A stretch of 57,438 nt of DNA from a virus, in IMG/VR virus record IMGVR_UViG_3300032356_000001; one strand, written 5' to 3'. The notes under the pieces were generated by a model. The model made no database searches, was not told the origin of the DNA, and saw only the letters and a list, made by a program, of their open reading frames with translations. The translations under genes were made by a program, and so were the position numbers. Each line of letters starts with the position of its first letter. The stretch's first letter is position 1. Shown here piece after piece: positions 5,607 to 37,686 of the stretch.

Positions 5607-5614
5607 GGCATGGA

Positions 5615-5635
5615 ATTATACCGCTCGCGTATAAT
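5615..5635. promoter_or_regulatory. Back-to-back divergent -10 boxes (ggAATTATAcc / cGTATAATTa)
   Basis: The minus-strand box serves ATG 5606. The plus-strand box (5630-5635) is 8 nt from ATG 5644. Confidence 0.6.
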
Positions 5636-5898: not shown

Positions 5899-6534
5899 AT
5901 GAGTTTCCAGCAGATTCACAGACCTGCTGACGGCGAACTCGTCACCGAGATGCGCAGTCTGCTAAGCCGAATCGCAGACCTGCGCCCGTTCTACCGCTAC
6001 GCCGCCAGTCGCATGCGTCAAGCGTTCCGCGAGAACTTCGCCGTCGGCGGACGACCCCCATGGCGACCGCTCGCTCCGTCGACCGTCGCAGCGAAACGCA
6101 TCATGGGGCTCCCTGCAGGGCTGCGCACGCCGTCGGGGCGCGTCCCGCGCCGACTCCTGCAGCGCGGGCAACTCAACGAGCGTACCATCCTCATCCTCAC
6201 AGGCGAGCTGCGCGACAGCGTCGCGCAGAAGAATCACCCACACCACATCACGCGCATCTCCAAAGACCGCGTCGAAGTCGGCACCTCGCATCCGCTCGCG
6301 CCCATCCACGAATTCGGCACGCGACCCTACTGGATCTACCCGCGACGCGCACGCGCACTCCGATTCGTTGATGCGAATGGACGCTGGGTGTATCGACGAC
6401 GCGTCTATCACCCTGGCGTGCCCGCGCGACCGTTCCTCAGGCTCACACAACAAGACGAGGACGACATCCACGACGCGCTCTTCGAATATCTTGTCGACGC
6501 CGTTATCCGACCCGACACAGAGGGACTGCTATGA
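5899..6534 (+). CDS. Phage virion morphogenesis protein (Mu gpG-like)
   Basis: WRPLAPSTVAAKR ... LILTGELRDSV ... VEVGTSHPLAPIHEFG matches the gpG/Phage_tail_S pattern. ATG 5899 (GTG 5896 also possible). Confidence 0.65.
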   Translation: MSFQQIHRPADGELVTEMRSLLSRIADLRPFYRYAASRMRQAFRENFAVGGRPPWRPLAPSTVAAKRIMGLPAGLRTPSGRVPRRLLQRGQLNERTILILTGELRDSVAQKNHPHHITRISKDRVEVGTSHPLAPIHEFGTRPYWIYPRRARALRFVDANGRWVYRRRVYHPGVPARPFLRLTQQDEDDIHDALFEYLVDAVIRPDTEGLL

Positions 6535-7325
6535 GTGACGAACTCCAACTCTGCACGGTCTACGAGAGCGATGTCTTCGACCTGCTCCGCAAGCTGCCCG
6601 ACCGCTCCGTCGACATGGTCTTTAGCGATCCCGACTACAATATGGGCATACGCTACAACGGGCGACGGCACAGGAAATCGTGGGACGACTACATCGACTG
6701 GTACATTCGGCTCGCGCGTGAGAGTCTGCGCGTGTTAAAAGACGATGGGAACGCTTTCTTCCTGAATATGCCGAAGCAGAACGCCTACCTGCGCGTGCGC
6801 TACCTCGACGACGCTTGCTACGATGTGCATGAGTACGCATGGTGCTACTCGCCCGATGTCGGGTTCAGCCCCTATCGGTTCACCACAGCGCACCGCACAA
6901 TCCTGCACGCGCGGAAGCAGAAGCGCACGCGCTGGTACAAGCACGCCGTCGTGCTGCCGTACAAGAACACGCGCGACAAGCGCATCCAGCGCACGCTCGC
7001 CGAAGGCTCGCCAGGACGCATGCCCTACGACTGGTTCCACATCGAGCTTGTCAAAGCAGGTTCGCGCGAGAAGACAATCCACCCGTGTCAGGTGCCGCGG
7101 CGGCTGTTTGAGCTGCTGCTCCGCGCGTCGACGCAGGAAGGCGACTTGGTGCTGGTGCTGTTCGGAGGCGCAGGCTCAGAAGTCGCTGTCTGCCATGAGC
7201 TGAATCGACGATGGCTCACTGCCGAAATCGACCCCGTGTACGCCGATCTGATTCGCAAGCGCGTCGCGCTCGGACGAATCCCAGACGAATACCGATGGCG
7301 ACCGAAAGGTACAATTCAGCGATGA
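6531..7325 (+). CDS. N6/N4 DNA methyltransferase (beta-class motif order)
   Basis: VDMVFSDPDYNMG (DPPY variant) followed by HPCQVPRRLFE..LVLVLFGGAGSE. Confidence 0.8.
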   Translation: MSDELQLCTVYESDVFDLLRKLPDRSVDMVFSDPDYNMGIRYNGRRHRKSWDDYIDWYIRLARESLRVLKDDGNAFFLNMPKQNAYLRVRYLDDACYDVHEYAWCYSPDVGFSPYRFTTAHRTILHARKQKRTRWYKHAVVLPYKNTRDKRIQRTLAEGSPGRMPYDWFHIELVKAGSREKTIHPCQVPRRLFELLLRASTQEGDLVLVLFGGAGSEVAVCHELNRRWLTAEIDPVYADLIRKRVALGRIPDEYRWRPKGTIQR

Positions 7326-8215
7326 GTGTCAAGTATCGTGTTTGGAAGGTGCGTCGGGATGGTGTGTCCCAGCGGTACAGGGTCGCGCCGACACGCGAGC
7401 ATAACGATGCGGTCACCGCAGTCATGAGCGGCGACCTCGCCAAGGCGAGATCGCGCAAGAAGCAGGAACTTGCACGGCAATTCCTGCAAGTCCCGTCGGT
7501 GCAGGAGTCGGTCTATCGCTCGCTGGTGCGACAGTATGAGGAAACAAACTCGACGGATGCGAAGCCGATGTTGTTCCTGAAATACTACTTGTCGCATGGG
7601 CATCCAGAGGCAGAGTCGCTGCTCGTGCGATTGGCGACCGAACCCTCCAACCTACATGTACGAGCCTCAGCTGTCCTTACGATGACGCTCTCTACGAATC
7701 CGCGTGTCCCGCGCTTGCTTCGCGAGGTTGCCGACAAGGCGCCCAACGAATGGACGGCTCGCTTCGCCATCGGCAAATTGGCAAGCTACCTTTTCATCAC
7801 GATGCAAGACATGATCGGTAAAGGAATCACGCCTGCAAGGGAGGCGGTACTCGATGCGATGGAGGCGCTCGGCATTGCGCTGCAAGGTAAGTGGGGCAGT
7901 CTCGAAGGCGAGATAACCTTCATCCTCGCCGCGTTGGACTACGAGCGGTGGAAATTCGAGAAGGCGGCTCACGGGCAGATACCCACTCGCGTTGAAAAGA
8001 CGGTTATCGACGGGCTGATGTCGCTTCTATCGTCAGGAGACTTGTCCACTGAGGTGTTCGATCGAACGCTAATAGTCATCAAGGAATGGCGATCAGAGTA
8101 CGCGCTCTCCAAGCTCCGTTCCTACTTGAGCGGTTCACTTCCGCACGAGCGTCGAGCGAAGGTTCTCGTCGCTATACAAGAGATAGAACACCGATCGAAG
8201 CGCAAGTCGAGATGA
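7322..8215 (+). CDS. HEAT-repeat protein, paralog 1, with the shared N-terminal tag MSVKYRVWKVRRDGVSQRYRVAPT
   Basis: ATG overlaps the methylase stop (ATGA). GGTACAATT (7310-7315) is 6 nt upstream. Repeats read LVRLATEPSNLHVRASAV..NPRVPRLLREVADKAPNEWTARFAI. Confidence 0.7.
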   Translation: MSVKYRVWKVRRDGVSQRYRVAPTREHNDAVTAVMSGDLAKARSRKKQELARQFLQVPSVQESVYRSLVRQYEETNSTDAKPMLFLKYYLSHGHPEAESLLVRLATEPSNLHVRASAVLTMTLSTNPRVPRLLREVADKAPNEWTARFAIGKLASYLFITMQDMIGKGITPAREAVLDAMEALGIALQGKWGSLEGEITFILAALDYERWKFEKAAHGQIPTRVEKTVIDGLMSLLSSGDLSTEVFDRTLIVIKEWRSEYALSKLRSYLSGSLPHERRAKVLVAIQEIEHRSKRKSR

Positions 8216-8226
8216 ACGTTGCGACG

Positions 8227-9039
8227 ATGAGTGTCAAGTATCGTGTTTGGAAGGTGCGTCGAGACGGAGTGTCCCAGCGGTACAGGGTCGCGCCGACACG
8301 CGAGTACGGTAAGTCGGTCGAGTCGATTGTCGTCAAGCAACTTCAGCACGCTCTGGAGACGGGTCAGCCCCCAGAAATCTCGCCCGCGAGCAACGACGGG
8401 CTGTTCCGCGTGTATGTCAACGCACTGGAGCGGAAGCTCGAACTGCAAGGAGACGCCGAGGCATATCAATTGCTGACTCCTCTCGAACCTTACCTCGCTC
8501 GTAATTTGCCTGAAGCGCATCGATTGATTGTCCGATTGGCAACCGAAGCGCCCCATCGGACACTGCGAAGCATCGCGATGGAGGTGTGCAAGCGTTCTGT
8601 GTACGAGACGCCCTCGCTGCTCAGCGAAATCGCGATTCAGTCACCTGATAGGTGGGGCGTGGACAAGGCGTTGAGAAATTTGCGAGAATACATAGACAAC
8701 GGATTGCGTTACCTCTTCGACACGCTTCTTCAGGGGAGGAAATTGAATGTAGACAAGTCAAAGTTCGAGCGCAGTCTCGTCAAGGGAATCGATGTGCTGC
8801 TCGACGGCTTGAACGGATTCGACGGGAAGTGGCAGATACCCGAATTGACTCTTAGCGGGTCAGTCGTCTGGATGCGCGACAATATTGGCGACATCCTTGA
8901 GCTACCGCTGACACAGAAGGTTCGTCGCAAGATGGAGCGCACGATGCAGGCAATCGCCAAGCGCGACGACCTCGATGATCAGGTACGCCACGATGCAGTC
9001 GGAGTGGCGCGGAAACTGCGGGAACGGCACGAATTGTAA
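8227..9039 (+). CDS. Tagged paralog 2: same N-terminal 26 aa, strongly diverged helical-repeat body
   Basis: The first 78 nt differ from paralog 1 at only 3 positions, then nucleotide identity stops abruptly. No own -10 box was seen. Confidence 0.65.
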   Translation: MSVKYRVWKVRRDGVSQRYRVAPTREYGKSVESIVVKQLQHALETGQPPEISPASNDGLFRVYVNALERKLELQGDAEAYQLLTPLEPYLARNLPEAHRLIVRLATEAPHRTLRSIAMEVCKRSVYETPSLLSEIAIQSPDRWGVDKALRNLREYIDNGLRYLFDTLLQGRKLNVDKSKFERSLVKGIDVLLDGLNGFDGKWQIPELTLSGSVVWMRDNIGDILELPLTQKVRRKMERTMQAIAKRDDLDDQVRHDAVGVARKLRERHEL

Positions 9040-9063
9040 GCAGGTCGGTACAATTCAGCAGCG

Positions 9064-9966
9064 ATGAGTGTCAAGTATCGTGTTTGGAAGGTGCGTCGAG
9101 ACGGGGTGTCCCAGCGGTACAGGGTCGCGCCGACACGCGAGCATGACGATGCGGTTATCGCTGTTATGAGCGACCGTCTCGCCACGGCGGAATCGCGCGA
9201 GGCGCAGGAACTTGCACGGAAACTCCTGCAGAATCCGTCGGTGCAGGAATTGCTCTATCGCTCGCTGGTGCGACAGTATGAGGAAACGAAGTCGTCGGAT
9301 GATGGGCCGATGTCGTTCCTGCAGCACTACTTGTCGCGCGGGCATCCTGGCGCAGAGGCGCTCCTCGTGCGATTGGCAACCGAACCCTCCAACTGGCATT
9401 TGCAATACGCAGCTGTCATTACGATAGCGAAATCTATGAATCCGCGTGCGCCGCGTTTGTTTCGCGAGATAGCCGACAAGGCGACCGACGAATGGACGGC
9501 TCGCTCCGCTATCTTCAACTTGGCAATCAATCTTAAAGTCACGATGGAAAACCTAATCGGTAAAGGAATCACGCCGACAAGGGAGGAGATACTCGATGCG
9601 TTGGAGACGCTCGGACTTGCGATGCAAGGCAAGTGGTTCGAGCCCAAACCCAAAGGCGAGATAAACCCCATCCTTGCCGCGTTGAACTACAAGCGTTCCG
9701 AATTCGAGAAGGCGACTCACGGGCAGATACCCACTCGCATCGAAGAGACGCTTATCGACGGGCTGATGTCGATTCTCTTGACCGAAGACTTGTCCACTGA
9801 GGCGTTCGATAGAACGCTGGATGTCATCAAGGAGTGGGGGTCAGAGTACGCGCTCTCCAAGCTCCGTTCTCTGTTGAGCGGTTCACTTCCGCACGAGCGT
9901 CGAGCGAATGTTCTCGACGCTATACAAGAGATAGAACATCGGCTGAAGCGCAATAGTAGTCAGTGA
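9064..9966 (+). CDS. HEAT-repeat protein, paralog 3, with shared N-terminal tag
   Basis: GGTACAATT (9049-9054) lies upstream; high nucleotide similarity to paralogs 1, 4 and 5 along the whole gene. Confidence 0.7.
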   Translation: MSVKYRVWKVRRDGVSQRYRVAPTREHDDAVIAVMSDRLATAESREAQELARKLLQNPSVQELLYRSLVRQYEETKSSDDGPMSFLQHYLSRGHPGAEALLVRLATEPSNWHLQYAAVITIAKSMNPRAPRLFREIADKATDEWTARSAIFNLAINLKVTMENLIGKGITPTREEILDALETLGLAMQGKWFEPKPKGEINPILAALNYKRSEFEKATHGQIPTRIEETLIDGLMSILLTEDLSTEAFDRTLDVIKEWGSEYALSKLRSLLSGSLPHERRANVLDAIQEIEHRLKRNSSQ

Positions 9967-10012
9967 ACTGCGGGAGCGGTACGAATTGTAAGCACGACGG
10001 TACAATTGAGCG

Positions 10013-10945
10013 ATGAGTGTCAAGTACCGTGTTTGGAAGGTGCGTCGGGATGGTGTGTCCCAGCGGTACAGGGTCGCGCCGACACGCGAGCATGACAGTG
10101 CGGTCGTCGGCGTCGTAAGCGGCGACCTCGCCTCGGCGGAGTCGCACAAGGAGCAGGAACTTGCACGAAAGCTCCTGCAGAATCCGTCGGTGCAGGAGTC
10201 GGTCTACCGCTCGCTGGTGCGACAGCATGAGAAAACGATCTCGACGGATGTGGGGCCGATGTTGTTCCTGCAAAACTACTTAGCGCATGGGTCTCCAGAG
10301 GCAGAGGCGCTGCTCGTGCGATTGGCGACCGAACCCTCCGACAGGAATGTACGATTCGCAGCTATCTATGCGATAGCGACCTCTATGGATCCGCGTGCGC
10401 CGCGCTTGATTCGCGAGGTTGCCGATAAGGCGCCCGACGAATGGACGGCTCGCACCGCCATCACCTACTTGGCAACATACCTTGAAGTCACGATGGAAAA
10501 CCTGATCGGTGAAGGAATCACGCCGACAAGGGATGAGGTACTCGATGCGCTGGAGATGCTCGGACTCGCGCTGCAAGGCGAGTGGTTCAGACCCGAAGAC
10601 GAGATACGCTACATCCTTGCCGCGTTGAACTACAAGCGTTCCGAATTCGAGCAAGCGGCTCACGGACAGATACCCGACAGCGTTGAAAAGCAGGTTATCG
10701 ACGGACTGATGTCGGTTCTCCCGATGGGAAGATTGTCCACCGAGGGGTTCGAGCAAACGCTGAATGTCATCAAGGAGTGGGGGTCAGAGTACGCGATTCG
10801 CAAGCTCCGTTCCTACTTGAGAGGCGCCATTTCCTTATTGAGAGACGCCATTTCGCAACAGCGTCGACGGATGGTTCTCGACGCTATACACGATATAGAA
10901 CAACGGCTGAAGCGCAAGTCGGTACAATTCGGCGATGAGCGGTAG
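10013..10945 (+). CDS. HEAT-repeat protein, paralog 4, with shared N-terminal tag
   Basis: GGTACAATT (10001-10006) lies 6 nt upstream of the ATG. Confidence 0.7.
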   Translation: MSVKYRVWKVRRDGVSQRYRVAPTREHDSAVVGVVSGDLASAESHKEQELARKLLQNPSVQESVYRSLVRQHEKTISTDVGPMLFLQNYLAHGSPEAEALLVRLATEPSDRNVRFAAIYAIATSMDPRAPRLIREVADKAPDEWTARTAITYLATYLEVTMENLIGEGITPTRDEVLDALEMLGLALQGEWFRPEDEIRYILAALNYKRSEFEQAAHGQIPDSVEKQVIDGLMSVLPMGRLSTEGFEQTLNVIKEWGSEYAIRKLRSYLRGAISLLRDAISQQRRRMVLDAIHDIEQRLKRKSVQFGDER

Positions 10946-11828
10946 GTATCAGGTACGGAAGGTGCGTCGGGATGGTGTGTCCCAACGGTACTGGGTCGCG
11001 CCGACAAGCGAGCATGACGATGCGGTTATTGCTGTCGTAAGCGGCGACCTTGCCACGGCGGAATCGCGCAAGATGCAGGAACTTGCACAGCAACTTATGC
11101 AAGCTCCGTCAGTGCAGGAGTCGGTCTATCGCTTGCTAATGCGACAGTATGAGGAAATTGGCACTTCGTATGCAAAGCCGATGTCGTTCCTGCAGCACTA
11201 CTTGTCGCGTGGGTATCCAGAGGCAGAGGCGCTGCTCGTGCGATTGGCGACCGAACCCTCCAACAGGCATGTACGAAGAGCAGCTATCGAAACGATAGCG
11301 ACCTCGACGAATCCGCGTGTCCCGCGCTTGATTCGCGAGGTCATCGACAAGGCGCCCGACGAAGACACGACTCGCTACGCCATCTTCTACTTGGCAACCT
11401 ACCTCAACGACACGATGCAGAATCTGATGACTCAAGGAATCACGCTTGCAAGGGAGGCGGTACTCGATGCGTTGGAGACGCTCGGACTTGCGATGCAAGG
11501 CAAATGGTTCGAGCCCAAAGGCGAGATAAGCAACATCCTCAACGCGTTGAAATACAAGCGTTCCGAATTCGAGCGGGCGGCTCAAGGGCAGATACCCGAC
11601 AGCGTTGAAAAGCAGGTTATCGACGGGCTGATGTCGGTTCTCTCGTTAGGAGACTTGGCTAATGAGGCGTTCAAGCAAATGCTGGGTGTCGTCGAGAAGT
11701 GGGGCTCAGAGTACGCGCTCTCCAAGCTTCGCTCTCTATGGAGCGGTTTAAGTTCGAAACGGCGTCGAGATATGGTCTTCGACGCTATGAACGAGATAGA
11801 ACACCAGCTGAAGCGCAAGTCGGGATAA
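10935..11828 (+). CDS. HEAT-repeat protein, paralog 5, with tag variant MSGRYQVRKVRRDGVSQRYWVAPT
   Basis: GGTACAATT (10923-10928) lies 6 nt upstream; 11-nt overlap with paralog 4. Confidence 0.7.
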   Translation: MSGRYQVRKVRRDGVSQRYWVAPTSEHDDAVIAVVSGDLATAESRKMQELAQQLMQAPSVQESVYRLLMRQYEEIGTSYAKPMSFLQHYLSRGYPEAEALLVRLATEPSNRHVRRAAIETIATSTNPRVPRLIREVIDKAPDEDTTRYAIFYLATYLNDTMQNLMTQGITLAREAVLDALETLGLAMQGKWFEPKGEISNILNALKYKRSEFERAAQGQIPDSVEKQVIDGLMSVLSLGDLANEAFKQMLGVVEKWGSEYALSKLRSLWSGLSSKRRRDMVFDAMNEIEHQLKRKSG

Positions 11829-11852
11829 ACGCGAGAGCGAGTGAGTTATCGG

Positions 11853-11858
11853 TATAAT
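11853..11858 (+). promoter_or_regulatory. -10 box (cGGTATAATTg), leaderless class
   Basis: 8 nt upstream of ATG 11867. Confidence 0.55.
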
Positions 11859-11866
11859 TGCACGGC

Positions 11867-12532
11867 ATGTCGCGGCGGAACCAACAGACGACGGCGCGTG
11901 TTGTGAGTGACGAGCCTATCTGCGATTGTGCGGATGAGCATCGCCTCGATGTTCATCTCGAAAGCGCGGATGGGTATCCAGCGGTTGCGAACCTCTGTAC
12001 CCGATGCGGGCGGATACATCGCTTGCCCGCGAACGCGCGTGTGCGCGAGCGTCACGATGAAGACACAGAGACCGAGCGCATGTTGAATCGCGTCTTGTCA
12101 GCGGATCGCGCCAACGCCCATCGTCTGCAAGAGGAGATGCTCGAATTGTACGAGCGCATCGAGCGCGAGCGCGACGAAATCGAGCGACGCGTCGAGATGT
12201 TCAGGCGACGCTACCCGCAGCCGCCCGTGCAGTCCACGGCACATTACCGTGACGCGCTCGCACAGTACGAAGCGGACATCGAGCGACTCCGCGAACTGGA
12301 GATGGCGGAAGCGCACGCTAACGAAACGCTCGGTATGCTCGGCATGCAGGAAGACCCAGACCCTGAGCAGTTCGAGCGCGTTCGAGCAATCGCGGGTATG
12401 CCGAGCCTTGACGCTACGATTCCGTCAGAACCTGACGACGCCACGCCAGACGCTATCCCATCGGAAGCGGAAACGACAGATTCGGAAGCGACGGATGCGA
12501 CTGCCAATACTGACCGTAGGTATTCTCCGTGA
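11867..12532 (+). CDS. Hypothetical coiled-coil protein with an N-terminal Cys cluster (CDC...CTRC) and an acidic tail
   Basis: ORF 11858-12532 trimmed to the ATG; E/R-rich heptad-like region. Confidence 0.55.
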   Translation: MSRRNQQTTARVVSDEPICDCADEHRLDVHLESADGYPAVANLCTRCGRIHRLPANARVRERHDEDTETERMLNRVLSADRANAHRLQEEMLELYERIERERDEIERRVEMFRRRYPQPPVQSTAHYRDALAQYEADIERLRELEMAEAHANETLGMLGMQEDPDPEQFERVRAIAGMPSLDATIPSEPDDATPDAIPSEAETTDSEATDATANTDRRYSP

Positions 12533-14453
12533 TACCGATTCGCAGTGGCATCCCCTGTGTCTTCTGTCGGAACTGTGCGTCCCAGTCGCCATCCCAGCCG
12601 GTCTCCCCGTCCGTTAGCACCAGCACGCCGCTGTACCCGCCCTCTTCATCCCTCTGGCGCGGCACGATTAATTTCTCGACGGCTTGCACGAGACTACCCG
12701 TCACATCCGTGCTGCCCGATACCTGCAGCTGCTTCGCGATGTCTTTAGTTCGACTGCGCAGTTCCTCAGCGCCAACCTCAATCGCGCGTTCAGCGTGCAG
12801 GGATCCCGTGAACGGCACGAAGGTGAACCGCACGCCCTCATCCGCGCCAGAGTTCTCGGCGAGGTCTTGCATGTGCCCCAGAAACTTGCTGAGCATCGCG
12901 TCGTCTATGGAGCCCGACGCATCGACGAGTACCAGTATACGCATCGAGTCGCGTCTTATCCCGCGCGGGAGCAGCACATTCCCGACGGCGAGCTGTGACG
13001 GGTGTCTGCGCCCGATGGCGATGTTCGGACGCCATCGCCTTGCGAATCCCATCGACTCGCTCATAAACTCGCGCAGCACCTGTTGCCAATTCACGCGGCG
13101 CATGCCTCGAATCGCGCTGATGAGACGCTGCGCGTCTGCGCTGCCCTTGCCAGCCTTCCGACCCGTCTCCTCCGACGCCGCGTGCGACTCGCGTGCCGTG
13201 CGGTTCCGCTCACGCTCCATGTATTCCTCAGGCGTCATGCCCGATTCTGCCGCGCGACGCTCGACCGTGCGACGCACCAGCTCATGATTCTCATCCAGCA
13301 TGTCGCTCCCCAGCGGATTCTGGGATGCCTGCTTGCCTGTTGCCCCGCTCGACTGCGACTGCGATGACTGCTGCGTCTGACTCCCGCTTGACTGCGACTG
13401 CGACTGCGATTGCGACGACTGCTGCGACTGCTTCCCGCCCGACTGCGACTGCGACGACTGCTGCGACTGACTCCCGCTCGACTGCGACTGCGACGACTGC
13501 TGCGACTGCTTCCCGCTCGACTGCGATTGCGACGACTGCTGCGACTGCTTCCCGCTCGACTGCGACTGCGACGACTGCTGCGACTGCTTCCCGCTCGACT
13601 GCGACTGCGACGACTGCTGCGACTGCTTCCCGCTCGACTGCGACTGCGACGACTGCTGCGACTGTGCCTCTGCGATTTGGTTCCTCGCATGCGTGCGGTA
13701 GTTCGACTCCCACGGCAGGTAGGGATCGCAATCCTCAAGCTTGTGTATTGCCCAATCGAAGTTCGCTTCTGACGAGACAACACGCGCCTCGCGCATCGAC
13801 TTCAGCAGCCCCTCGATGAGCGTGTTGATTTCCAAGTCCGCTACATCGTTGAATACCGAGTGCGGACTCGCGCCTGCTCGTTCCAGCTCGCCGATAATAT
13901 CGCGATTGAGACGCTTAAAGTCATCGAATCGTGGGAAGTGGGTGAGCGCGAGGTGCAGCGCCTCGTGCAACAGCACCACCTGCACCATGTCGACGGTCGC
14001 CCGCACGCGGTCGGACTCGCTTATCTCCTGTCCCGTGCGTTTCTGGTGCTGTTCCGCCATGATTTTCGGTATCTCGCGCGTCACGAAGTCTGGCGAGATG
14101 TAGAGGTGTCCGAACGGGTCGACCGCCATCGTATCCAGTTCGTTCGTGTAGACAATCTTCTGGAACGGGAGCAAGCGTGACAGGGACGGGAACACCGAGC
14201 GCAGTCGTGTGAAGGCGTTCCCGACGATTTCCTGCGCTCGCGCCAGAGACTGCGAAGGCGATGCAGGCGCGGGTTCCGACGGCGTCCCAGACCCCGCGCG
14301 GGCATGCACGGCAGACTCAGGGAGTACCCAGTACCGCCGTTGGAACACCCCGTGCTGCCCGTGCACCATGTGCGGTTCGGGATGGAGCCTGCCCCCGTGC
14401 GACGGGTCGCTCAGGATGACCGAATCCCACCAAACCACGCGCGACTTGCTCAT
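12453..14453 (-). CDS. Zn-metallopeptidase-like (HExxH) + von Willebrand A domain protein (DUF2201-like) with the N-terminal shared tag and an SQ-rich repeat linker
   Basis: Motifs VLLHEALHLALTH, MIDAS VLVDASGSID and ...LVLTDGETGW. ATG 14453 is preceded by GGAGAGG and TGGTACAAT (14466-14471). Confidence 0.8.
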   Translation of the reverse strand: MSKSRVVWWDSVILSDPSHGGRLHPEPHMVHGQHGVFQRRYWVLPESAVHARAGSGTPSEPAPASPSQSLARAQEIVGNAFTRLRSVFPSLSRLLPFQKIVYTNELDTMAVDPFGHLYISPDFVTREIPKIMAEQHQKRTGQEISESDRVRATVDMVQVVLLHEALHLALTHFPRFDDFKRLNRDIIGELERAGASPHSVFNDVADLEINTLIEGLLKSMREARVVSSEANFDWAIHKLEDCDPYLPWESNYRTHARNQIAEAQSQQSSQSQSSGKQSQQSSQSQSSGKQSQQSSQSQSSGKQSQQSSQSQSSGKQSQQSSQSQSSGSQSQQSSQSQSGGKQSQQSSQSQSQSQSSGSQTQQSSQSQSSGATGKQASQNPLGSDMLDENHELVRRTVERRAAESGMTPEEYMERERNRTARESHAASEETGRKAGKGSADAQRLISAIRGMRRVNWQQVLREFMSESMGFARRWRPNIAIGRRHPSQLAVGNVLLPRGIRRDSMRILVLVDASGSIDDAMLSKFLGHMQDLAENSGADEGVRFTFVPFTGSLHAERAIEVGAEELRSRTKDIAKQLQVSGSTDVTGSLVQAVEKLIVPRQRDEEGGYSGVLVLTDGETGWDGDWDAQFRQKTQGMPLRIGITENTYGQYWQSHPSLPNLSFPLPMG
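13351..13664. repeat. About 8 tandem copies of a 39-bp unit (gactgcgactgcgacgactgctgcgactgcttcccgctc), in frame, encoding (SSGKQSQQSSQSQ)n
   Basis: Read directly; copies differ by a few substitutions and one 6-bp insertion. Confidence 0.9.
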
Positions 14454-17068
14454 CGCCTCTCCGCGATTGTACCATACGGCGCATCGGTCAGGTGACCGTG
14501 TGCGCTCAGCAGATGCATCGCGTGGAGCAGCTCCTCGCGATGCTCGGGCGAGAGATGTTCCCACACATTGTTGACCGTCTGCCAGTGCTGTTCTACCGTG
14601 TCTCGGATTCTGCCGCGTGCGCTCGCATGCAACGGCGCGACATTCACAGCGGGATGCGACAGCACCTGCGCCACATGCTCAGGCGCATGACCTGCCAGCC
14701 GACCGAGTTCCGCATGCTGCTTGCGACGCGCATCCTCATGGTAGGCGCGATACTCGTCGTGAATCTCCTCTGGGAGTATCTCCTGACCCGATTCTACATC
14801 GATGACGGGCGTATGGAGCATCGAGAGCAGTCCCATCCCTGCAGCCGCGCGATGCGCCTCGCGCGAAATCGCATGCACCGTCGATGCATCGCGGTTCTGT
14901 GCGAGAGTCTCCAGCAGACCGTCGAGACGGTTGAGACTGCGTTCCGTCTCCGTGTGCGTGTCGTGCAGGCGCTGTGCGACGATTTCAGGGTTGCCCGAAC
15001 CGAGTATTGCACGCACGCCCCGTCCCAGCGGCGAGCGCGAGTCGACCGCTTCAAGGTGCAGCGCGTGCGCTGCAGGCGCGCCGTGCTGACCCGCCAAGTG
15101 GAGCAGATGCTTCGAGCGCGTGAGGTCGACCGATGCGTGCGAGTCGAACCCTGGCATGTGCAGTTCGGATGTTCCGTCGGGATTCGTACTGACATGCAGC
15201 TTGTCGGTGTCGGTATCCAGATAGTGCAGCGGGAGCGAGAACTCGTAGGGTTGCTGCGACGGGGGCGTGTCGTCGCTGGATAGCACGCGAATCAAGTCGT
15301 CGACGGTCTCAATCGGCTGGCTCTTGAAGGTCGCGCGGGTATGCTTCGCGCCCGCCTCCTTCGCGCGGTCGGAGTGCGTGATGAACACTCCCTCATGCGT
15401 CGCGGCGTCGTGTACCCGCGTCTCGCGATGCACTGTCCGACCGTGATGCGCATCGCTCCCTGCAGCGTCGTCCATAATCGCTTCGACCGATTCCGCGCCT
15501 CGCGGCTTGAGCGCCGTCTGGATAATCTCGTGAATCTTCGGAATGTTCGGGCGTCCCACATTACATGCGAGGAACCGCTCCACCTCTGGCGAGTCCAAGT
15601 CGTATCCCAGCGCGAACAGCACGGACAGCTGGTCAGCGAGTATCATCACGCGTCGCGGCGACATATGCTTGCGGTCGGAATCCATCGAGGCGTAATCGGG
15701 CATATAGTTCGGGTCTGACTTGAAGTTATGCCACATCCCCGCGAGGTCGCCTGATAGCATCGCGTCGATGAGCGCACTCGCGATGCGGTAGTTCGTGCTT
15801 GCGCATTCCGCGCGGAGATCCGAGCGTAGCCCGCGCGACGACATCAGCTTCAGCAGCGTCATCAGATTCTGATGCTCGCGCATCACCTCGCGTGCGGAAC
15901 GACCCGTCTCCAGTTTCGCCCGCATCTGTTCCAGCTCGCCCGCCGCGCCCGCCAGCTCGGGCGACGACGCCTGACGCGACTGACGCGCCTCTTCCGCTTC
16001 CCGCTCCGCATCCTCGTCATAATCCAGAACGAACCGACGCAGGCGATCACGCGCACCTGTCGCTTCGCGCGACGACTCCTGCTCAAACACCGACTGAATC
16101 GCGCGTACATACTCGTCCTCTTCCGACGGCGTCGTCGCATAGTAGAGGAACCTGTCCGCGAACGGAACCAGCGAGGAGCGCATCTTGCCCATCTCGCCTT
16201 CCCAGTCCGCGCGGTTACCGAGCATCACGATGCGGAACGGAACGCCGAGCCGACGGTCAGCGACGATACCGTTCGTGATGAGCGACAGCATCGTCTGCAG
16301 GATCTGGGGCGACTTCGTCGCCTCGTCGAACACCAGCACGAGCGGTACGCCGCGCTGCTTGCAATACTGAATCTTGTGTTCCAAGTCCGCCGTGAACATG
16401 AACCGCACCATGCCCTCGTCGATGGCTTGTGCGCCCATCTGCTCTGTAATGTTGTAGACTGCCGATTGCACATTCAGGATATGGACGCGGAACGGCGCTG
16501 CGTCCTGTTCCGACATAGCGTCGCTCATGTTCATCATCGCTTCCCACAGCGTGGTCTTGCCCACGCCAGGAGCGGAGAGCATCATCACGGGGTGTCCGAC
16601 GGCGCTCCCGTTCTCGTGGATACGCACGGCAAGATGTGCGAGCATCATCTGGCGCTCCATCGGGTTCAGTTGTTCGATGGCGTTGCGCAGCGCCTCGCGT
16701 ACCTCTTCAGGGAGCTGTTCGACATCCAGCCCTGCGGGCGAGGCGCTGGGGGCGCCCGCGCCGTGCGACGGCGCGGGCGCTGGGTGAGGAGACACGGAAG
16801 GAGAAGGTGAGGATGATGGCGATGTAGAGGAAGGCTTCCGCTTGCGTGCTTCGAGCGTCTCGCCGCGCACCCAGAAGGTCTGCTGGAAGGTCGTGCCCTC
16901 GCGATGCACAGTCCGCTCCTCAGGATGTAGACCACGCGACATCGGGTCTTGATGCAGCCCCGAATGGTGCGGGATACTCGGATGGTACTCGTACCGCTCC
17001 GAGAACAGCACCGTGCGCCACCAGACGCGACGCCTGCGATTAATCCGATTCGATGTACCGATTCGCAT
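14450..17068 (-). CDS. Large AAA+ ATPase (MoxR/AAA_5-like core) with the N-terminal shared tag and a long C-terminal extension
   Basis: Walker A LSAPGVGKTT and Walker B LVLVFDEATK. Start chosen at ATG 17068 (GGAGCG SD); 17080 is also possible. Confidence 0.75.
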   Translation of the reverse strand: MRIGTSNRINRRRRVWWRTVLFSERYEYHPSIPHHSGLHQDPMSRGLHPEERTVHREGTTFQQTFWVRGETLEARKRKPSSTSPSSSPSPSVSPHPAPAPSHGAGAPSASPAGLDVEQLPEEVREALRNAIEQLNPMERQMMLAHLAVRIHENGSAVGHPVMMLSAPGVGKTTLWEAMMNMSDAMSEQDAAPFRVHILNVQSAVYNITEQMGAQAIDEGMVRFMFTADLEHKIQYCKQRGVPLVLVFDEATKSPQILQTMLSLITNGIVADRRLGVPFRIVMLGNRADWEGEMGKMRSSLVPFADRFLYYATTPSEEDEYVRAIQSVFEQESSREATGARDRLRRFVLDYDEDAEREAEEARQSRQASSPELAGAAGELEQMRAKLETGRSAREVMREHQNLMTLLKLMSSRGLRSDLRAECASTNYRIASALIDAMLSGDLAGMWHNFKSDPNYMPDYASMDSDRKHMSPRRVMILADQLSVLFALGYDLDSPEVERFLACNVGRPNIPKIHEIIQTALKPRGAESVEAIMDDAAGSDAHHGRTVHRETRVHDAATHEGVFITHSDRAKEAGAKHTRATFKSQPIETVDDLIRVLSSDDTPPSQQPYEFSLPLHYLDTDTDKLHVSTNPDGTSELHMPGFDSHASVDLTRSKHLLHLAGQHGAPAAHALHLEAVDSRSPLGRGVRAILGSGNPEIVAQRLHDTHTETERSLNRLDGLLETLAQNRDASTVHAISREAHRAAAGMGLLSMLHTPVIDVESGQEILPEEIHDEYRAYHEDARRKQHAELGRLAGHAPEHVAQVLSHPAVNVAPLHASARGRIRDTVEQHWQTVNNVWEHLSPEHREELLHAMHLLSAHGHLTDAPYGTIAERR

Positions 17069-17387
17069 GAGACGCTCCATGAGGAGTATACGCCGTCGAG
17101 ACCAGCGCATCGACTCGCGAGACCAAATCCGTGTCGCTTGGCGCGTCGCTGTTGCGCACCTCATCCGCAAGCACATCGATGAGACCGACCAGCACCATCC
17201 ATGGCGAAGTGTCGGTGTCGCCCTGATACGACTCGGCTAAGTCCAGCAGGTGCTGTAGCAGCTCGCGCGGATTCGCATCGCCCAGACGCGCCATGGCGCA
17301 TGCGACGCCGACATCACGGACACGCTCCAGCAGCGCGTCGATGTCCTCAACCTGCAGAATCTCCTGCACAATCGGCGGTTGTCTCAT
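17040..17387 (-). CDS. Acidic hypothetical protein (115 aa) immediately downstream of the sigma factor; anti-sigma or adaptor role is speculative
   Basis: ATGA start/stop overlap with the sigma gene; D/E-rich. Confidence 0.55.
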   Translation of the reverse strand: MRQPPIVQEILQVEDIDALLERVRDVGVACAMARLGDANPRELLQHLLDLAESYQGDTDTSPWMVLVGLIDVLADEVRNSDAPSDTDLVSRVDALVSTAYTPHGASHANRYIESD

Positions 17388-17875
17388 TGAAGCCTCCGAC
17401 GAATCGATTCGATGACTGTCTCCAGATACCTGCTGCTCATGCCCAGCTCGCGTCTGATATCCGAGCGCGATTGACCCGACACGAGCCGTTCCGCCACCTC
17501 ACGCTCCTCTGGCGGCATCACTGCCAGAGTCGCCGTCCATTCCATAGCATCATCCGTCGCCTCAGCGTGCATCGCACACATGATATCCCATTCGTTGTAG
17601 GCAATCTCCTTCCGCTTGCGCAGGTAATCCCGACCCGTGTTCGCAATCGCGCGGCGGATATACCGCTCTGCGCTCTCTAATCGGATACGCGGCGCGTTCA
17701 CCCACAGTTTCACTGCGACCTCGTTCGCCAGCGACTCCGCCTCGTCGGACTCGATATGGTACGCCTTGAGATACCATGCGAACGCGCAGTCCCGCACACG
17801 CTCCGCAAACAGGTCGTACTCGCAGGTCTCATGACCGCGCTCCAAAGCGACGAGCATCTCCCGCCATCGCGTCAT
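17384..17875 (-). CDS. Sigma-70 family (ECF-like, regions 2 and 4) sigma factor
   Basis: Region 2-like YIRRAIANTGRDYLRKRK. Region 4-like MPPEEREVAERLVSGQSRSDIRRELGMSSRYLETVIESIRRRL. Confidence 0.7.
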   Translation of the reverse strand: MTRWREMLVALERGHETCEYDLFAERVRDCAFAWYLKAYHIESDEAESLANEVAVKLWVNAPRIRLESAERYIRRAIANTGRDYLRKRKEIAYNEWDIMCAMHAEATDDAMEWTATLAVMPPEEREVAERLVSGQSRSDIRRELGMSSRYLETVIESIRRRLQ

Positions 17876-17876
17876 C

Positions 17877-18305
17877 TCACCACCCGCTCCCCGTGCGACG
17901 CACACTCCGAATGCTCCGCACGGGCGTCGGCTGCGACTGCGGCGCAAAGACTGGGAGCATCCACTCGACCGACTCGCCCAGCACATGCGCCCAGCCCCGT
18001 TCCAGTCGCTGCAACTCGTCTTCCGCCTGCTGATACAGCTGCTGTGCGTAGGGGTTCATAGACGCGCCGACGTTGGTTATCGCCAGCGTTCGCGCCTCCA
18101 CCAGCGCCGCCGCCAGCTGCATCGTTATCGTCGGTATCGGCGGTTTCGCAGGCGCGTCCGTCACCATCATGCGCGGGTACAACCGCACCAAGCGCGAACG
18201 GATGTACGATTCCGCAGCATCGATAGCCGCCTGCAACACGGAATCGTCTATCGGCTCCAGATTCCGCACATAGAACCGCACTTGCGCTGGCGTCACCCAC
18301 GACAT
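17877..18305 (-). CDS. Head-tail connector/adaptor protein (Mu gp36/DUF1320-like)
   Basis: MSWVTPAQVRFYV..IDDSVLQAAIDAAESYIRSRLVRLYP pattern; sits directly downstream of the MCP. Confidence 0.55.
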   Translation of the reverse strand: MSWVTPAQVRFYVRNLEPIDDSVLQAAIDAAESYIRSRLVRLYPRMMVTDAPAKPPIPTITMQLAAALVEARTLAITNVGASMNPYAQQLYQQAEDELQRLERGWAHVLGESVEWMLPVFAPQSQPTPVRSIRSVRRTGSGW

Positions 18306-18368
18306 GACTAAGTTCTCCCGTAATGTGTGGATGCGGGTGCGCTCCGTATCAGAGCGCACCCGCTATGC

Positions 18369-19319
18369 TTATGCTGCCGACATCACATTCTGGATTAGCA
18401 CCCCGCATGCGCGGGCGATGACCTTGTGCGTGTAAATCCAGTCCACCTCGATCCATGTGCCGCTGTCGCGTTCGACATCGATGTAGGTGCGCACATTCCG
18501 CTGACGCGCCTCGAAGGTCGCCCCGTAGGTCAGACGACGCAGACCTGGCTTATCGACATAGCCCACCCAGACATCGCGTCCCCATATCTCATCCATCCGA
18601 CTGGTCACCGTGATTTCCTGCGGGTCGAGACTGCGCGAGCCGAACGGGTCTGTCGGGAGCTGAAGCGCCGCCGCTTCCAGCACTTCCAGACCCCACAGGT
18701 TCTGTGGGAGCCCGCTCTGGGTCAAGTCCGTCACATAGCGTCGCTCTTCCTTGATTTCCTCGATTGCCAGCATCCGCCGCGCAATCGTCGAGGGAATCAC
18801 GACCACATTCGGACGACGCCCCGTAGCCGTGAAGATGAAGTTGCTCGCGTTAATCAGGTCGACCTTCGGCGACGCGACGGTATAGTTGTCCCACGCCGTC
18901 GACGGCGTGAACGCATGCAGGTTGTTCGCAGGGTCGCGCAGGGTTCGCGCCGCGCGAATCTCGCGGTTGAGCATCAACAGGTCGGTCAGATGCTCCGTCA
19001 TATCGACTTCCAAGTCGATGGGCCCCGACACATTCTCACGCTGGCGCGGTGTGATAATCTCGCGCAGTGAGTGCTGCTCGCACATGTACCAGTCTGCCTT
19101 CCACCCGAACGACGCCTGCTTCGCCGTGTCGCCGTCCTGCCGCGTGTCATCGACATACCGAAACGCGGAGAGGTCGTACACATAGAACAGGTCGCTCTCC
19201 TTGTTCACAGGCATCGACGGGAAGATGCGATCCGCGATGTACCCTTCGGGACGGTACTTAATGCTGACATTCGTCAGCACCTCATCGTAGTGAACTCGTT
19301 GCGCTTGTGCGACTGCCAT
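18369..19319 (-). CDS. Major capsid protein (lambda gpE-like family)
   Basis: 316 aa; SIKYRPEGYIADRIFPSMPVNKESDLFYVYD N-terminal signature; position after the protease/scaffold and a decoration-like gene. Confidence 0.8.
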   Translation of the reverse strand: MAVAQAQRVHYDEVLTNVSIKYRPEGYIADRIFPSMPVNKESDLFYVYDLSAFRYVDDTRQDGDTAKQASFGWKADWYMCEQHSLREIITPRQRENVSGPIDLEVDMTEHLTDLLMLNREIRAARTLRDPANNLHAFTPSTAWDNYTVASPKVDLINASNFIFTATGRRPNVVVIPSTIARRMLAIEEIKEERRYVTDLTQSGLPQNLWGLEVLEAAALQLPTDPFGSRSLDPQEITVTSRMDEIWGRDVWVGYVDKPGLRRLTYGATFEARQRNVRTYIDVERDSGTWIEVDWIYTHKVIARACGVLIQNVMSAA

Positions 19320-21000: not shown

Positions 21001-21069
21001 TCTGCGCTCCCTAAACGAAGCAGGCGGTGCGCTCGCATGATGCAAGCGCACCGCCTGCTACATCGACCA

Positions 21070-37566: not shown

Positions 37567-37573
37567 CGTTAGA

Positions 37574-37579
37574 ATTGTA
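37574..37579 (-). promoter_or_regulatory. -10 box (cCGTACAATTc), leaderless class
   Basis: Read directly; a second GGTATAATT lies at 37646-37651 on the same strand. Confidence 0.5.
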
Positions 37580-37660
37580 CGGCAGGAAGTGGAGTCGCGC
37601 GTCGTGACGCCTCCCATTGGATTCGAGCCGTGTGTGTGGTGACGAATTATACCGCATGCT

Positions 37661-37686
37661 TAAGGGTGACAATTTGTCACCCTTAT
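37661..37686. promoter_or_regulatory. Second copy of the TAAGGGTGACAAtTTGTCACCCTTAT palindrome, abutting the left end of the tnpB element
   Basis: 26/26 identity with 2565-2590. Confidence 0.8.

Follow-up and report, generated by a model that had tools for sequence, protein, structure and literature searches.

A predicted beta-hairpin peptide shared by seven N-termini of an uncultured phage, probably a docking or loading tag

Introduction

N-terminal capsid-targeting peptides are known from T4 IPIII and P1 DarB, and that of DarB has been proven experimentally (PMC9024508). Phage proteins of the 'polyvalent' type are predicted to be packaged in the capsid and injected (PMC5512222), and a DarB-like protein of the Thermus phage Lalka was hypothesised by its authors to be virion-packaged (PMC11437467). 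Another class of small modules, the effector-associated domains (EADs), has been proposed to couple effectors to vWA-MoxR cores (PMC7159879).

The window analysed here is the whole 57,438-nt stretch of the uncultured phage recorded as IMGVR_UViG_3300032356_000001 in IMG/VR. Seven N-termini encoded in it carry one beta-hairpin peptide; they belong to five helical-repeat proteins, an ATPase and a metallopeptidase-like protein. The peptide probably serves them as a common tag for docking or loading. It bears no sequence similarity to the DarB peptide, and nothing connects it to the capsid-targeting sequence (CTS) of T4.

Results and Discussion

Organization of the tagged genes

The N-termini of the AAA+ and VWA proteins share a two-part module, consisting of motif A (RVWWxSVLxSE) and motif B (LHPExRxVHxxGxxFQxxYWV), while the HEAT proteins share motif B only. 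The features, with the -10-like boxes described below, are as follows.

7308-7316: GGTACAATT box of H1
7322..7399, + strand: tag of the HEAT paralog H1 (gene 7322-8215), translated as MSVKYRVWKVRRDGVSQRYRVAPTRE, a shortened motif B hairpin
8227..8304, + strand: tag of H2, a divergent paralog (gene 8227-9039), peptide identical to that of H1
9047-9055: GGTACAATT box of H3
9064..9141, + strand: tag of the HEAT paralog H3 (gene 9064-9966)
9999-10007: GGTACAATT box of H4
10013..10090, + strand: tag of the HEAT paralog H4 (gene 10013-10945)
10935..11012, + strand: tag of the HEAT paralog H5 (gene 10935-11828), MSGRYQVRKVRRDGVSQRYWVAPTSE
12453..14309, - strand: body of the tagged VWA protein, with a Ser/Pro-rich linker, an HExxH domain, SQ-rich 13-aa repeats and a VWA domain
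14310..14390, - strand: motif B of the VWA/metallopeptidase protein, RLHPEPHMVHGQHGVFQRRYWVLPESA
14406..14441, - strand: motif A of the same protein, RVVWWDSVILSD
14450..16855, - strand: body of the tagged MoxR-like AAA+ protein, with a Ser/Pro/Ala-rich linker of ~60 aa, a P-loop ATPase and a long C-terminal extension
16856..16936, - strand: motif B of the AAA+ protein, RGLHPEERTVHREGTTFQQTFWVRGET
16994..17029, - strand: motif A of the AAA+ protein, RVWWRTVLFSER

Four of the five plus-strand paralogs start with MSVKYRVWKVRRDGVSQRYRVAPTRE and the fifth with MSGRYQVRKVRRDGVSQRYWVAPTSE. The body of H1 matches Pfam HEAT_2 at 29.1 bits, against a cut-off of 27.7. On the minus strand, the VWA/HExxH protein (start 14453) has the N-terminus MSKSRVVWWDSVILSDPSHGGRLHPEPHMVHGQHGVFQRRYWVLPESA, and that of the AAA+ protein (start 17068) reads MRIGTSNRINRRRRVWWRTVLFSERYEY...RGLHPEERTVHREGTTFQQTFWVRGET. 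The VWA body matches phrog_1314 (E=1e-24) and DUF2201 (E=2e-4), with PF13203, PF00092 and PF09967 found in its homologues; its SQ-rich repeats correspond to a 39-nt tandem repeat at 13344-13664. The AAA+ body matches phrog_1297 (E=8e-4), and one homologue is named 'MoxR-like ATPase' by JGI; the tag was not found in the AAA+ homologues P0003-P0005. The first-pass annotation had described a module of ~25 aa on seven unrelated proteins. The sharing holds, although the seven proteins amount to about four independent bodies (the HEAT family, the very divergent paralog H2, VWA and AAA+) and the AAA+/VWA module is bipartite, spanning 48-71 aa.

The AAA+ and VWA genes lie on one strand, directly downstream of the major capsid protein (MCP) gene, a 160-aa ORF and a sigma-factor gene; no family match was found for this ORF. 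The HEAT genes are transcribed divergently from the head operon. A canonical second MoxR/VWA pair is encoded without tag at 51014-53679, so that MoxR-VWA function as such does not depend on the tag. Neither motif A nor motif B was found in any other reading frame of the window.

Relatedness, structure and conservation of the tags

The alignment of the VWA and AAA+ N-termini noted in the first pass is real and was understated: the Smith-Waterman score is 85, against 25.6 +/- 5.2 for shuffled sequences (z=11.4), and was reached by 0 of 2000 shuffles. Pairwise comparison of the HEAT tag with either protein is marginal, the score being reached by 10 to 689 of 2000 shuffles depending on the paralog. 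Its proposed kinship with the distal part of the AAA+/VWA module was nevertheless borne out by profiles. When a VWA+AAA+ profile was run against the six-frame translation, the next five matches were the HEAT N-termini (E 0.001-0.12), and profile-profile comparison (hhalign) of the HEAT tags with motif copies of unrelated phages gave a probability of 94.7% (P=6e-8). The tags of the window are thus homologous and form one motif family, in which the HEAT tag is a motif B variant with a 2-residue deletion in the hairpin. The HEAT tag is fused directly to the solenoid, whereas in the AAA+ and VWA proteins motif B is preceded by motif A and followed by the flexible Ser/Pro-rich linker.

AF2 models predict a beta-hairpin in both forms. 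In H5 it comprises strands 5-10 and 16-21 (pLDDT 62-73), next to an all-alpha solenoid with pLDDT above 90; in the VWA protein it occupies residues 24-32 and 35-43 (pLDDT 80-87). When the AAA+ protein was compared with that of a relative (60% overall identity), identity was 100% in motif A and 85% in motif B but fell to 63% in the body and 54% in the linker. No part of this protein is better conserved than the tag, which is under purifying selection. As codon changes in AAA+ motif B are mostly synonymous (9 synonymous and 4 non-synonymous in 22 codons), the tags are judged to be translated. Four HEAT genes carry a -10-like GGTACAATT box 5 nt upstream of the ATG, an arrangement that would fit leaderless mRNAs beginning at the tag. 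Between H2 and H1, the tag is identical at 96% of nucleotides and 100% of amino acids, against 40% and 22% for the remainder of the gene; the tag thus behaves as a cassette exchangeable between paralogs.

Occurrence in other phages

Motif B, a predicted free-standing beta-hairpin of ~25 aa with the consensus xLxPxxRxVxRxGKTFxQTxWVxPE, has no match to Pfam or NCBIfam models, nor to any PDB sequence. A profile search of phage and metagenome proteins, suggested in the first-pass annotation, did recover it outside the clade: the window-module profile, searched against 1.84 billion representative proteins, gave multi-copy matches in polyvalent proteins (E 1.6e-5 to 6e-4). The shortness of the motif limited the search to six credible outside proteins at E<=1e-3. 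Motif A is restricted to this phage clade and absent from these outside matches. Conversely, an external-only HMM, built from 22 motif copies outside the clade and searched against the six-frame window, recovers both the AAA+ protein (E=3e-12) and the VWA protein (E=2e-6) but scores the HEAT tags at E about 5 only.

The outside matches bear ART-PolyVal, InPase, DUF5661, DUF6582, LPD1, RadC and ADP-ribosyltransferase exoenzyme domains and HipA-like kinases. Among other phages, the unrelated effector domains behind the hairpin comprise ART, NUDIX, GNAT, HipA-like kinase, RadC/JAB, InPase and a DarB-like methylase-helicase. The tag thus extends beyond this genome. Judging from these sequences, motif B belongs to a widespread short module, uncurated in Pfam and NCBIfam, which phages place before effector ('cargo') domains. 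The core of the first-pass idea, namely that unrelated proteins carry the same short peptide as a shared signal for addressing or docking, is supported. The description as an N-terminal tag applies to this phage; in the polyvalent effectors of others, copies sit between domains as well as at N-termini, often in several adjacent genes. Motif copies share a mean identity of 59% within one genome or protein versus 39% between genomes, a difference consistent with gene conversion or with a tag that co-evolves with a partner particular to each genome.

Wherever a lineage offered enough context, motif-bearing genes were located within or next to the head/packaging module, typically near portal, MuF or prohead-protease genes. 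In Thermus phiMa, the portal and minor-head genes are followed by the tagged gene and then by TerL. In Bacillus phage YungSlug, the motif occupies residues 5-28 of an ART-type protein, whose gene directly precedes those for portal, protease and MCP. L024 has the motif in four adjacent ORFs, one ORF upstream of an S78 prohead-protease ORF; in L025 a Phage_Mu_F ORF precedes an InPase-DUF5661-MuF_C ORF with 2 copies, after which comes an ORF with an N-terminal copy. In the DarB-like protein of Lalka the motif corresponds to residues 87-112. In each of the metagenome contigs L035, L039, L040 and L042, the motif is found in 2-3 adjacent ORFs, within the first ~80 residues of the stop-to-stop frame. 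The label 'virion structural protein' on weak Bacillus-phage matches comes from annotation only, and the phiAGATE paper contains no virion proteomics.

Possible functions of the tag

With slightly less than even confidence, the hairpin is best read as a docking element by which cargo proteins are brought into the procapsid and delivered along with the DNA. Counted in favor of this reading are the single motif family, the variety of effectors, the head-module setting, the hairpin prediction, the selection and the cassette exchange, as well as the place of the AAA+ and VWA genes downstream of MCP and the precedents of T4 IPIII and P1 DarB. In the assembling head, one phage-encoded partner would serve as the common docking site of the hairpin, with beta-strand augmentation as the probable mode of binding; the portal, a MuF-like protein, the scaffold/protease and the inner capsid surface are candidates. 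The procapsid would in this way take up all tagged proteins together, and they would enter the next cell with the DNA; the tag may later be cleaved near its conserved Pro-Glu end. Packaging followed by tag removal by the Mu-type protease, as envisaged in the first pass, is a conjecture of the same kind. Internal copies between domains would not be predicted from a simple N-terminal signal and count against loading. The HEAT genes may not be late genes because of their own -10-like boxes and divergent transcription. Moreover, all tagged proteins of this phage could form one AAA+/VWA/HEAT machine, for which an adaptor would suit equally well.

Such an adaptor would join the MoxR-like AAA+ protein, the VWA/metallopeptidase and the HEAT solenoids in one cytoplasmic complex without virion packaging or, more broadly, would cluster a phage's effectors by homotypic or heterotypic association; the first pass had itself offered docking to a shared partner such as the AAA+ ring, which may be retained. 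All tagged proteins are neighbors (7322-17068) in a plausible system of MoxR, VWA and repeat proteins, and the untagged canonical pair suggests that the tag marks a separate complex. As in EAD systems, the same small module occurs on core components and stand-alone neighbors (PMC7159879), with copies closer within than between lineages, and several copies per polypeptide and per genome would suit multimerisation. We consider this role rather unlikely: lacking a Pfam match, the module is none of the curated EAD families, and EAD systems were described from bacteria with a multicellular habit, not from phage head modules (PMC7159879). Elsewhere the motif occurs on effectors with no AAA+/VWA gene nearby (ART, NUDIX, GNAT, kinases, JAB), in or beside head/packaging modules, and the AF2 models, a weak test, give no sign of self-association. 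Binding of DNA or RNA by the Arg/Lys-rich hairpin, with its conserved Arg, Gln and Trp, is quite unlikely. It would hold effectors on the phage genome for co-packaging or co-ejection, or send them to host nucleic acid. The first strand is basic, usually after Lys/Arg runs (KKVQVTR, RKVRR, PVKRQVTR), some carriers, such as the DarB-like methylase-helicase, are nucleic-acid enzymes, and SPP1 gp7, a head protein of the MuF family, binds DNA. However, an acidic Pro-Glu-Asp/Glu stretch ends the motif and brings the net charge near neutral in many copies, the motif matches no known nucleic-acid-binding families, and conservation on both hairpin faces (V, R, G, F, Q, W, V) is more reminiscent of a protein-buried element.

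It is very unlikely that the hairpin serves only as a protease recognition element, without targeting role, through which the Mu-type prohead protease, the tagged HExxH protein itself or a host enzyme would free domains from polyvalent precursors and trim N-termini. Internal copies do fall exactly between domains of polyvalent proteins, the conserved Pro-Glu comes after the hairpin, and a Mu-type protease gene is present at 20008-21051 (PF10123 in a relative). Many prohead proteases cut after Glu. In P1, the capsid protein is cut at the bond between Glu120 and Ser121 (PMC9024508), and proteolytic processing has been proposed for polyvalent proteins (PMC5512222). A structured hairpin of 25 residues, with both faces conserved, nevertheless goes far beyond the needs of a cleavage site; in the HEAT proteins no linker separates it from the solenoid, and a cleavage consensus could not be derived. 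Processing is also compatible with loading rather than exclusive of it; the T4 CTS is a targeting signal as well as a cleaved peptide. Most improbable is a partial artefact at the DNA level, in which the HEAT tags resemble each other through a copied 5' segment (gene conversion among paralogs, or a nucleotide-level element of leaderless mRNA) and the AAA+/VWA resemblance is due to chance. The tag DNA is indeed 95-99% identical among H1-H4, even with bodies 40% identical, and the HEAT tags score marginally in pairwise comparison with VWA/AAA+ and lie out of reach of the external-only HMM (E about 5). Against this stand the profile results given above, both the hhalign comparison with outside copies and the HEAT N-termini as the top five non-self matches of the VWA+AAA+ profile. 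In the 60% relative, the four HEAT-like paralogs retain VRRDGVTQRYWVRP, although the residues on either side differ, as do the codons for R, D and G; one of these paralogs also has the upstream LHP of AAA+/VWA. Within the window, the same residues are encoded by different codons in the AAA+ and VWA modules.

Tagged genes and homology of their N-termini

A single short hairpin, kept under purifying selection, has been fused ahead of unrelated domains, both in this phage and in many phages that are not related to it. In the window, a phage genome of 57.4 kb with 62% G+C, seven genes carry it:

Tagged genes of the window
7322 (start), + strand: H1, HEAT paralog
8227 (start; gene 8227-9039), + strand: H2, divergent HEAT paralog
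9064 (start), + strand: H3, HEAT paralog
10013 (start), + strand: H4, HEAT paralog
10935 (start), + strand: H5, HEAT paralog
12453-14453, - strand: VWA, a protein of 666 aa combining an HExxH motif with a VWA domain (phrog_1314, E=1e-24)
14450-17068, - strand: AAA+, an 872-aa P-loop ATPase (weak match to phrog_1297, E=8e-4, and Walker A)

The head module of this genome is Mu-like and comprises TerL, portal, a protease assigned to head-maturation-protease PHROGs and an MCP of phrog_1005; the protease of a related contig (L028) carries PF10123 (Mu-like_Pro_N). Portal is encoded at 23082-24563, a 253-aa ORF occupies the MuF position (21938-22699), and protease/scaffold (20008-21051), a 220-aa ORF (19333-19995) and MCP (18369-19319) complete the set. 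Among GenBank phages, neither a DNA-level relative of the window nor a relative of the AAA+ protein was found, and distant Mu-like capsid matches at the protein level are the sole relatives found in that set. The HEAT array adjoins a virion-morphogenesis gene. The Pfam HEAT_2 cut-off of 27.7 bits is passed by H1 (29.1 bits) and H5 (30.4 bits), with H2 below this threshold, and the AF2 model of H5 is an all-alpha solenoid (pTM 0.83) whose nearest PDB folds, according to Foldseek, are ARM/HEAT proteins. A homologue of AAA+ is named MoxR-like by JGI. The VWA protein scores 21.8 bits against DUF2201, under the cut-off of 26.4, and its homologues have PF13203, PF00092 and PF09967. The genes on the - strand are ordered MCP, a 160-aa ORF that matches no family, a sigma-factor gene, a 115-aa ORF, AAA+ and VWA, and the AAA+ stop codon overlaps the VWA start as ATGA. 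Located between the 160-aa ORF and AAA+, the sigma-70-family gene (17384-17986, - strand; Sigma70_r2, phrog_1740) belongs to the head operon. At 13344-13664, the VWA gene contains 7.9 copies of a 39-nt tandem repeat, translated as an SQ-rich repeat of 13 aa (SSQSQSSGKQSQQ). In close relatives, complete homologues of VWA measure 589 to 657 aa, a range that possibly originates from changes in repeat copy number.

The alignment of the AAA+ and VWA N-termini is significant against shuffled controls (z=11.4; 0/2000 shuffles reach its score). The module common to both proteins is bipartite: motif A (RVWWxSVLxSE) lies near the first residue and motif B, (R/G)LHPExRxVHxxGxxFQxxYWV(R/L)(G/P)E, is found downstream, the two being separated by a variable His-rich insert and followed by a Ser/Pro-rich low-complexity linker. 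The tag of the HEAT paralogs, of which four out of five start MSVKYRVWKVRRDGVSQRYRVAPTRE and the fifth MSGRYQVRKVRRDGVSQRYWVAPTSE, is equivalent to motif B only. Pairwise similarity between the HEAT tag and motif B is marginal. When a profile of VWA and AAA+ was used, the next five matches were the HEAT N-termini, all of them in the correct position, and the profile-profile comparison (hhalign) of HEAT tags with the motif copies of unrelated phages yielded a probability of 94.7% (P=6e-8), two residues being cleanly deleted from the hairpin of the HEAT tags. An HMM constructed from 22 outside copies only, none belonging to the clade, retrieved AAA+ (E=3e-12) and VWA (E=2e-6) from the six-frame window and did not reach the HEAT tags (E about 5). 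Neither motif was found in any other frame of the window. Hairpin strands are predicted by AF2 in the VWA copy (24-32 and 35-43, pLDDT 80-87) and in H5 (5-10 and 16-21, pLDDT 62-73); motif A alone was left without confident structure. The 52.5-kb contig L011, whose AAA+ and VWA proteins are 60% and 50% identical to those of the window, encodes four HEAT-like paralogs starting ..VLHPRRVVRRDGVTQRYWVRP and a VWA protein that reads RLHPEPRMVRGERKVFTRRYWVRG. The claim of the first-pass annotation that a single short module is common to the seven N-termini is confirmed by the shuffled alignments, the outside HMM and hhalign, and is generalised by the presence of the module in unrelated phage proteins recovered by profile searching of databases.

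Distribution of motif B in other phages

A 50-position profile of the window modules was searched against 1.84 billion representative proteins. Outside the clade, five credible proteins were obtained, each with 2-3 matches (E 1.6e-5 to 6e-4), and all five are typical phage 'polyvalent' proteins; a sixth was discarded as a low-complexity false match. The outside matches covered profile positions 16-46, corresponding to motif B, and motif A was not found outside the clade. Additional carriers were collected by tblastn and pattern scans.

Carriers of motif B outside the clade; [B], one copy of the motif
P0048: [B]-ART-PolyVal-[B]-InPase-DUF5661-DUF6582-[B]-LPD1
P0047: InPase-[B]-ADP-ribosyltransferase-[B]-MuF-like end (end read from the sequence, no Pfam match)
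P0045: [B]-...-[B]-RadC/JAB-[B]-...-DUF5661-DUF6582
P0043: [B]-HipA-like kinase-[B]-kinase
Thermus phage Lalka27a: DarB-like protein, motif at residues 87-112
Thermus phiMa_19: motif at residues 40-63; gene after portal and minor-head genes, before TerL
Bacillus phage YungSlug: ART-type protein, residues 5-28; gene directly preceding those of portal, protease and MCP
IMG/VR contig L024: seven copies on four adjacent ORFs (DUF5661, NUDIX, GNAT, one without assignment)
IMG/VR contig L025: Phage_Mu_F ORF, InPase-DUF5661-MuF_C ORF (two copies) and 1075-aa ORF (N-terminal copy)
Metagenome contigs L035, L039, L040 and L042: 2-3 adjacent ORFs each, motif no further than ~80 residues into the stop-to-stop frame

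The motif is also present on two more contigs, one gammaproteobacterial and the other from the bin of a Thermoplasmatales MAG. Examples of outside copies are LTRKEITVTRGGTTFKQTRWVRPEQV, VPVKRQVTRGGKTFQQTFWVNPED, NLHPEQRTVERDGKTFEQTKWV and ITVHGPEGVFQRRAWVLPSEV, and the consensus of the family is xLxPxxRxVxRxGKTFxQTxWVxPE. In every lineage with enough context, the carrier genes fall within the head/packaging module or next to it; those of L024 are found one ORF upstream from an S78 prohead-protease ORF. A genome often has the motif on more than one gene, with seven such genes in the window, and copies are 59% alike within a genome or protein versus 39% between genomes.

No match was obtained in Pfam with the isolated modules (E<=10) or in NCBIfam with the AAA+ module (E<=1). 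PADLOC returned nothing for the full-length tagged proteins, a profile search of PDB sequences gave chance DHFR matches only, and no paper was retrieved by full-text literature search for the motif strings. Likewise, no Pfam, NCBIfam or literature name was found for the hairpin of polyvalent proteins, and the portion consulted of the paper devoted to these proteins does not seem to describe it. A word-indexed search of 5.8 billion sequences with the tag alignment produced 1242 candidates and none at E<=10, because the profile is too short for a collection of this size. At the DNA level, a degenerate HEAT-type pattern retrieved this clade only from IMG/VR, and the canonical GKTFxQTxW[VI] patterns were present at 2 viral, 3 genome and 11 metagenome loci. 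Exact motif words are rare although the motif itself is widespread. The vWA/hypothetical/AAA genes of Lalka27a (contig L026, 3660-7878, between the minor-head gene and TerL), an unrelated set that may resemble a PrkA/YeaH/SpoVR-type triad, have no motif B and were rejected as a parallel. The 'virion structural protein' label of phiAGATE was dropped as packaging evidence because the phiAGATE paper has no virion proteomics.

Translation, selection and expression of the tags

The tags are translated and under purifying selection. Between the AAA+ proteins of the window and of L011, identity amounts to 100% in motif A, 85% in motif B, 54% in the linker and 63% in the body; the corresponding values for VWA are 78%, 59%, 24% and 56%. 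Over the 22 codons of the AAA+ motif B, 9 synonymous and 4 non-synonymous differences separate the two genomes.

A GGTACAATT box precedes the ATG of H1, H3, H4 and H5 by ~5-8 nt and was not seen at H2. When one mismatch is allowed, the -10-like box GGTA(C/T)AATT occurs in 17 copies in the window versus 2.9 expected, mostly 5-8 nt upstream of an ATG. Its sites include 7308-7316, 9047-9055, 9999-10007, 10921-10929, 11851-11859, 5614-5622 (- strand), 14465-14473 (- strand), 37573-37967 and 56749-56757. The box looks like the -10 element of leaderless mRNAs starting at the first tag codon, and either the host sigma factor or that of the phage may read it; no enrichment was detected in a sigma-70 promoter/terminator scan of positions 6400-18500.

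The H2 gene has a chimeric appearance. Its 26-codon tag is 96% identical to that of H1 in nucleotides and 100% in amino acids, versus 40% and 22% for the remainder of the gene, and the differences within the paralog tags are few and all synonymous. The tag thus behaves like a cassette among the paralogs, which indicates that gene conversion or recombination acts on the HEAT tags on top of protein-level constraint.

Untagged relatives

The tag is dispensable for some members of the family: AAA+ homologues at 49-53% identity have neither the module nor the linker. One such homologue (49%) is encoded in the chromosome of the Fimbriimonadales bacterium MAG GCA_026418845.1 (L012, 10001-12268), with no VWA gene and with an SMC_N/AAA_23 ATPase and an HxlR regulator as neighbours; it may be a clue to the lineage of the host, or to the ATPase having come from a cell. 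The window itself contains a second pair devoid of tags:

Untagged MoxR/VWA pair of the window
52621-53679, - strand: canonical MoxR ATPase (phrog_1297, E=9e-56)
51014-52624, - strand: DUF2201/VWA protein (phrog_1314, E=9e-41)

The phage thus probably has two MoxR/VWA pairs, and the tag is present only on the divergent pair beside the head genes. In some close relatives an extra gene, absent from the window, follows MCP and precedes the next ORF; its product of 184 aa starts MR(V/I)WWxSVLLSE and displays motif A without motif B (L011, 449-1003; L004, 524-1177; L007, 8100-8753).

Comparison with known systems

The same motif and predicted hairpin are found in the phage polyvalent carriers (P0045, P0047, P0048, the DarB-like protein of Lalka, phiMa_19 and the ART protein of YungSlug). 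As in the window, the hairpin precedes effector domains, a low-complexity linker often comes next, several carriers occur per genome, and their genes lie in or beside head modules. The carriers of the window are nevertheless single-domain proteins whereas the polyvalent ones are multi-domain, and no AAA+ ATPase, VWA/metallopeptidase or HEAT solenoid was seen among the other motif B carriers. In addition, AAA+ and VWA of the window display the clade-specific motif A, and the HEAT version is two hairpin residues shorter.

For T4 IPIII and P1 DarB, capsid targeting by an N-terminal peptide is established, and in DarB the first 30 residues suffice; in both cases a short N-terminal peptide is common to, or sufficient for, procapsid loading of unrelated proteins (PMC9024508). 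The DarB-like protein of the Thermus phage also has motif B in its N-terminal region. T4 and P1 cargo is delivered with the DNA; for the motif B carriers, packaging and cleavage are proposals. The motif HMM found no match in the P1 Dar proteins, the best being E=0.77 at DarB residues 425-434 with none to residues 1-30. Unlike the T4 and P1 signals, motif B is also internal and multi-copy, and it is conserved across distant phage groups, in contrast to the N-termini of the P1 Dar proteins, for which no common consensus was found (PMC9024508). The interpretation of the first-pass annotation, with the T4 signal as precedent, is partly supported: the shared addressing or docking tag gains from the association with effectors and head modules, whereas its packaging and cleavage are conjectural. 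Encapsulin cargo-loading peptides, usually C-terminal, mark diverse cargo for one container, and the MIX motif marks secreted type VI effectors and is usable to predict new cargo; sequence, position and machinery differ from those of motif B, and the analogy is functional only.

Functional interpretation

The reading that we favor, tentatively and with nearly even confidence, is that of a docking hairpin loading cargo into the procapsid via one head component. The hairpin would recruit cargo proteins to this component, and the recruited proteins would thereby be loaded. Packing into the capsid and injection are presumed for polyvalent proteins (PMC5512222), and the authors of the Lalka study hypothesize that its DarB-like protein is virion-packaged (PMC11437467). 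Together with the T4 and P1 peptides, these proposals make a docking hairpin the most economical reading. Flexible linkers such as those of AAA+ and VWA are what a docking peptide on a tether would be expected to have; the internal copies need an extra assumption, either multivalent docking or processing at the motif. In a broader version, tailed phages in general, across host phyla, would use motif B as a tag for loading and delivery; every carrier would be packed and injected, and this phage would deliver a complete machine made of AAA+, VWA and five HEAT proteins. This version is somewhat less likely than not. The breadth across phage groups, the internal copies and the presence on the AAA+/VWA/HEAT set are unusual.

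Among the alternatives, a coupling adaptor assembling AAA+, VWA and the HEAT solenoids would be comparable to the EADs of bacterial vWA-MoxR ternary conflict systems, small modules duplicated on the MoxR/vWA core and on stand-alone repeat neighbours, with copies more alike within than between lineages and a predicted coupling-adaptor role (PMC7159879). The layout of the window fits this logic, as the same tag is found on AAA+, VWA and five neighbouring solenoid proteins. The curated EAD families are not matched by motif B, however; the tag resides in a phage instead of a cellular defence locus, no VMAP-like third component was noticed, and in other phages the hairpin occurs without a nearby MoxR or vWA gene. 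We consider such an adaptor rather unlikely. A hairpin binding nucleic acids appears improbable. A role as protease recognition element only, which would be compatible with loading, is quite improbable. Pro-Glu is conserved after the hairpin and a Mu-type protease gene is present in the window; no cleavage consensus emerged. Finally, the resemblance of the HEAT tags could be a by-product of the gene conversion proposed for these paralogs; the paralogs of L011 and the hhalign result speak against this explanation, which is very hard to credit.

It is hard to predict which phage proteins enter the host along with the DNA. To our knowledge, the known capsid-targeting peptides of T4 and P1 are each specific to one phage; the carriers of motif B span Bacillus and Thermus phages, a gammaproteobacterial assembly contig and the high-GC phage of the window. 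If motif B were indeed a loading tag, it would constitute a sequence marker for cargo or injected proteins across phage genomes, a handle on the head component recruiting them and possibly a portable tag to load foreign proteins into capsids. The unusual late pair of AAA+ and VWA would then, together with the HEAT array, represent a delivered anti-host machine and not assembly chaperones. If the adaptor were correct instead, coupling of the EAD type, as described for bacterial conflict systems, would extend to phages.

An SNF2-type helicase gene

Between TerL and portal, a position typical for polyvalent or injected proteins, the gene at 24560-27727 (- strand) encodes an SNF2-type helicase protein of 1055 aa that matches PBECR5 faintly (E=0.027) and has no motif B. 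Its family, phrog_62, also adjoins motif-bearing ORFs in L025.
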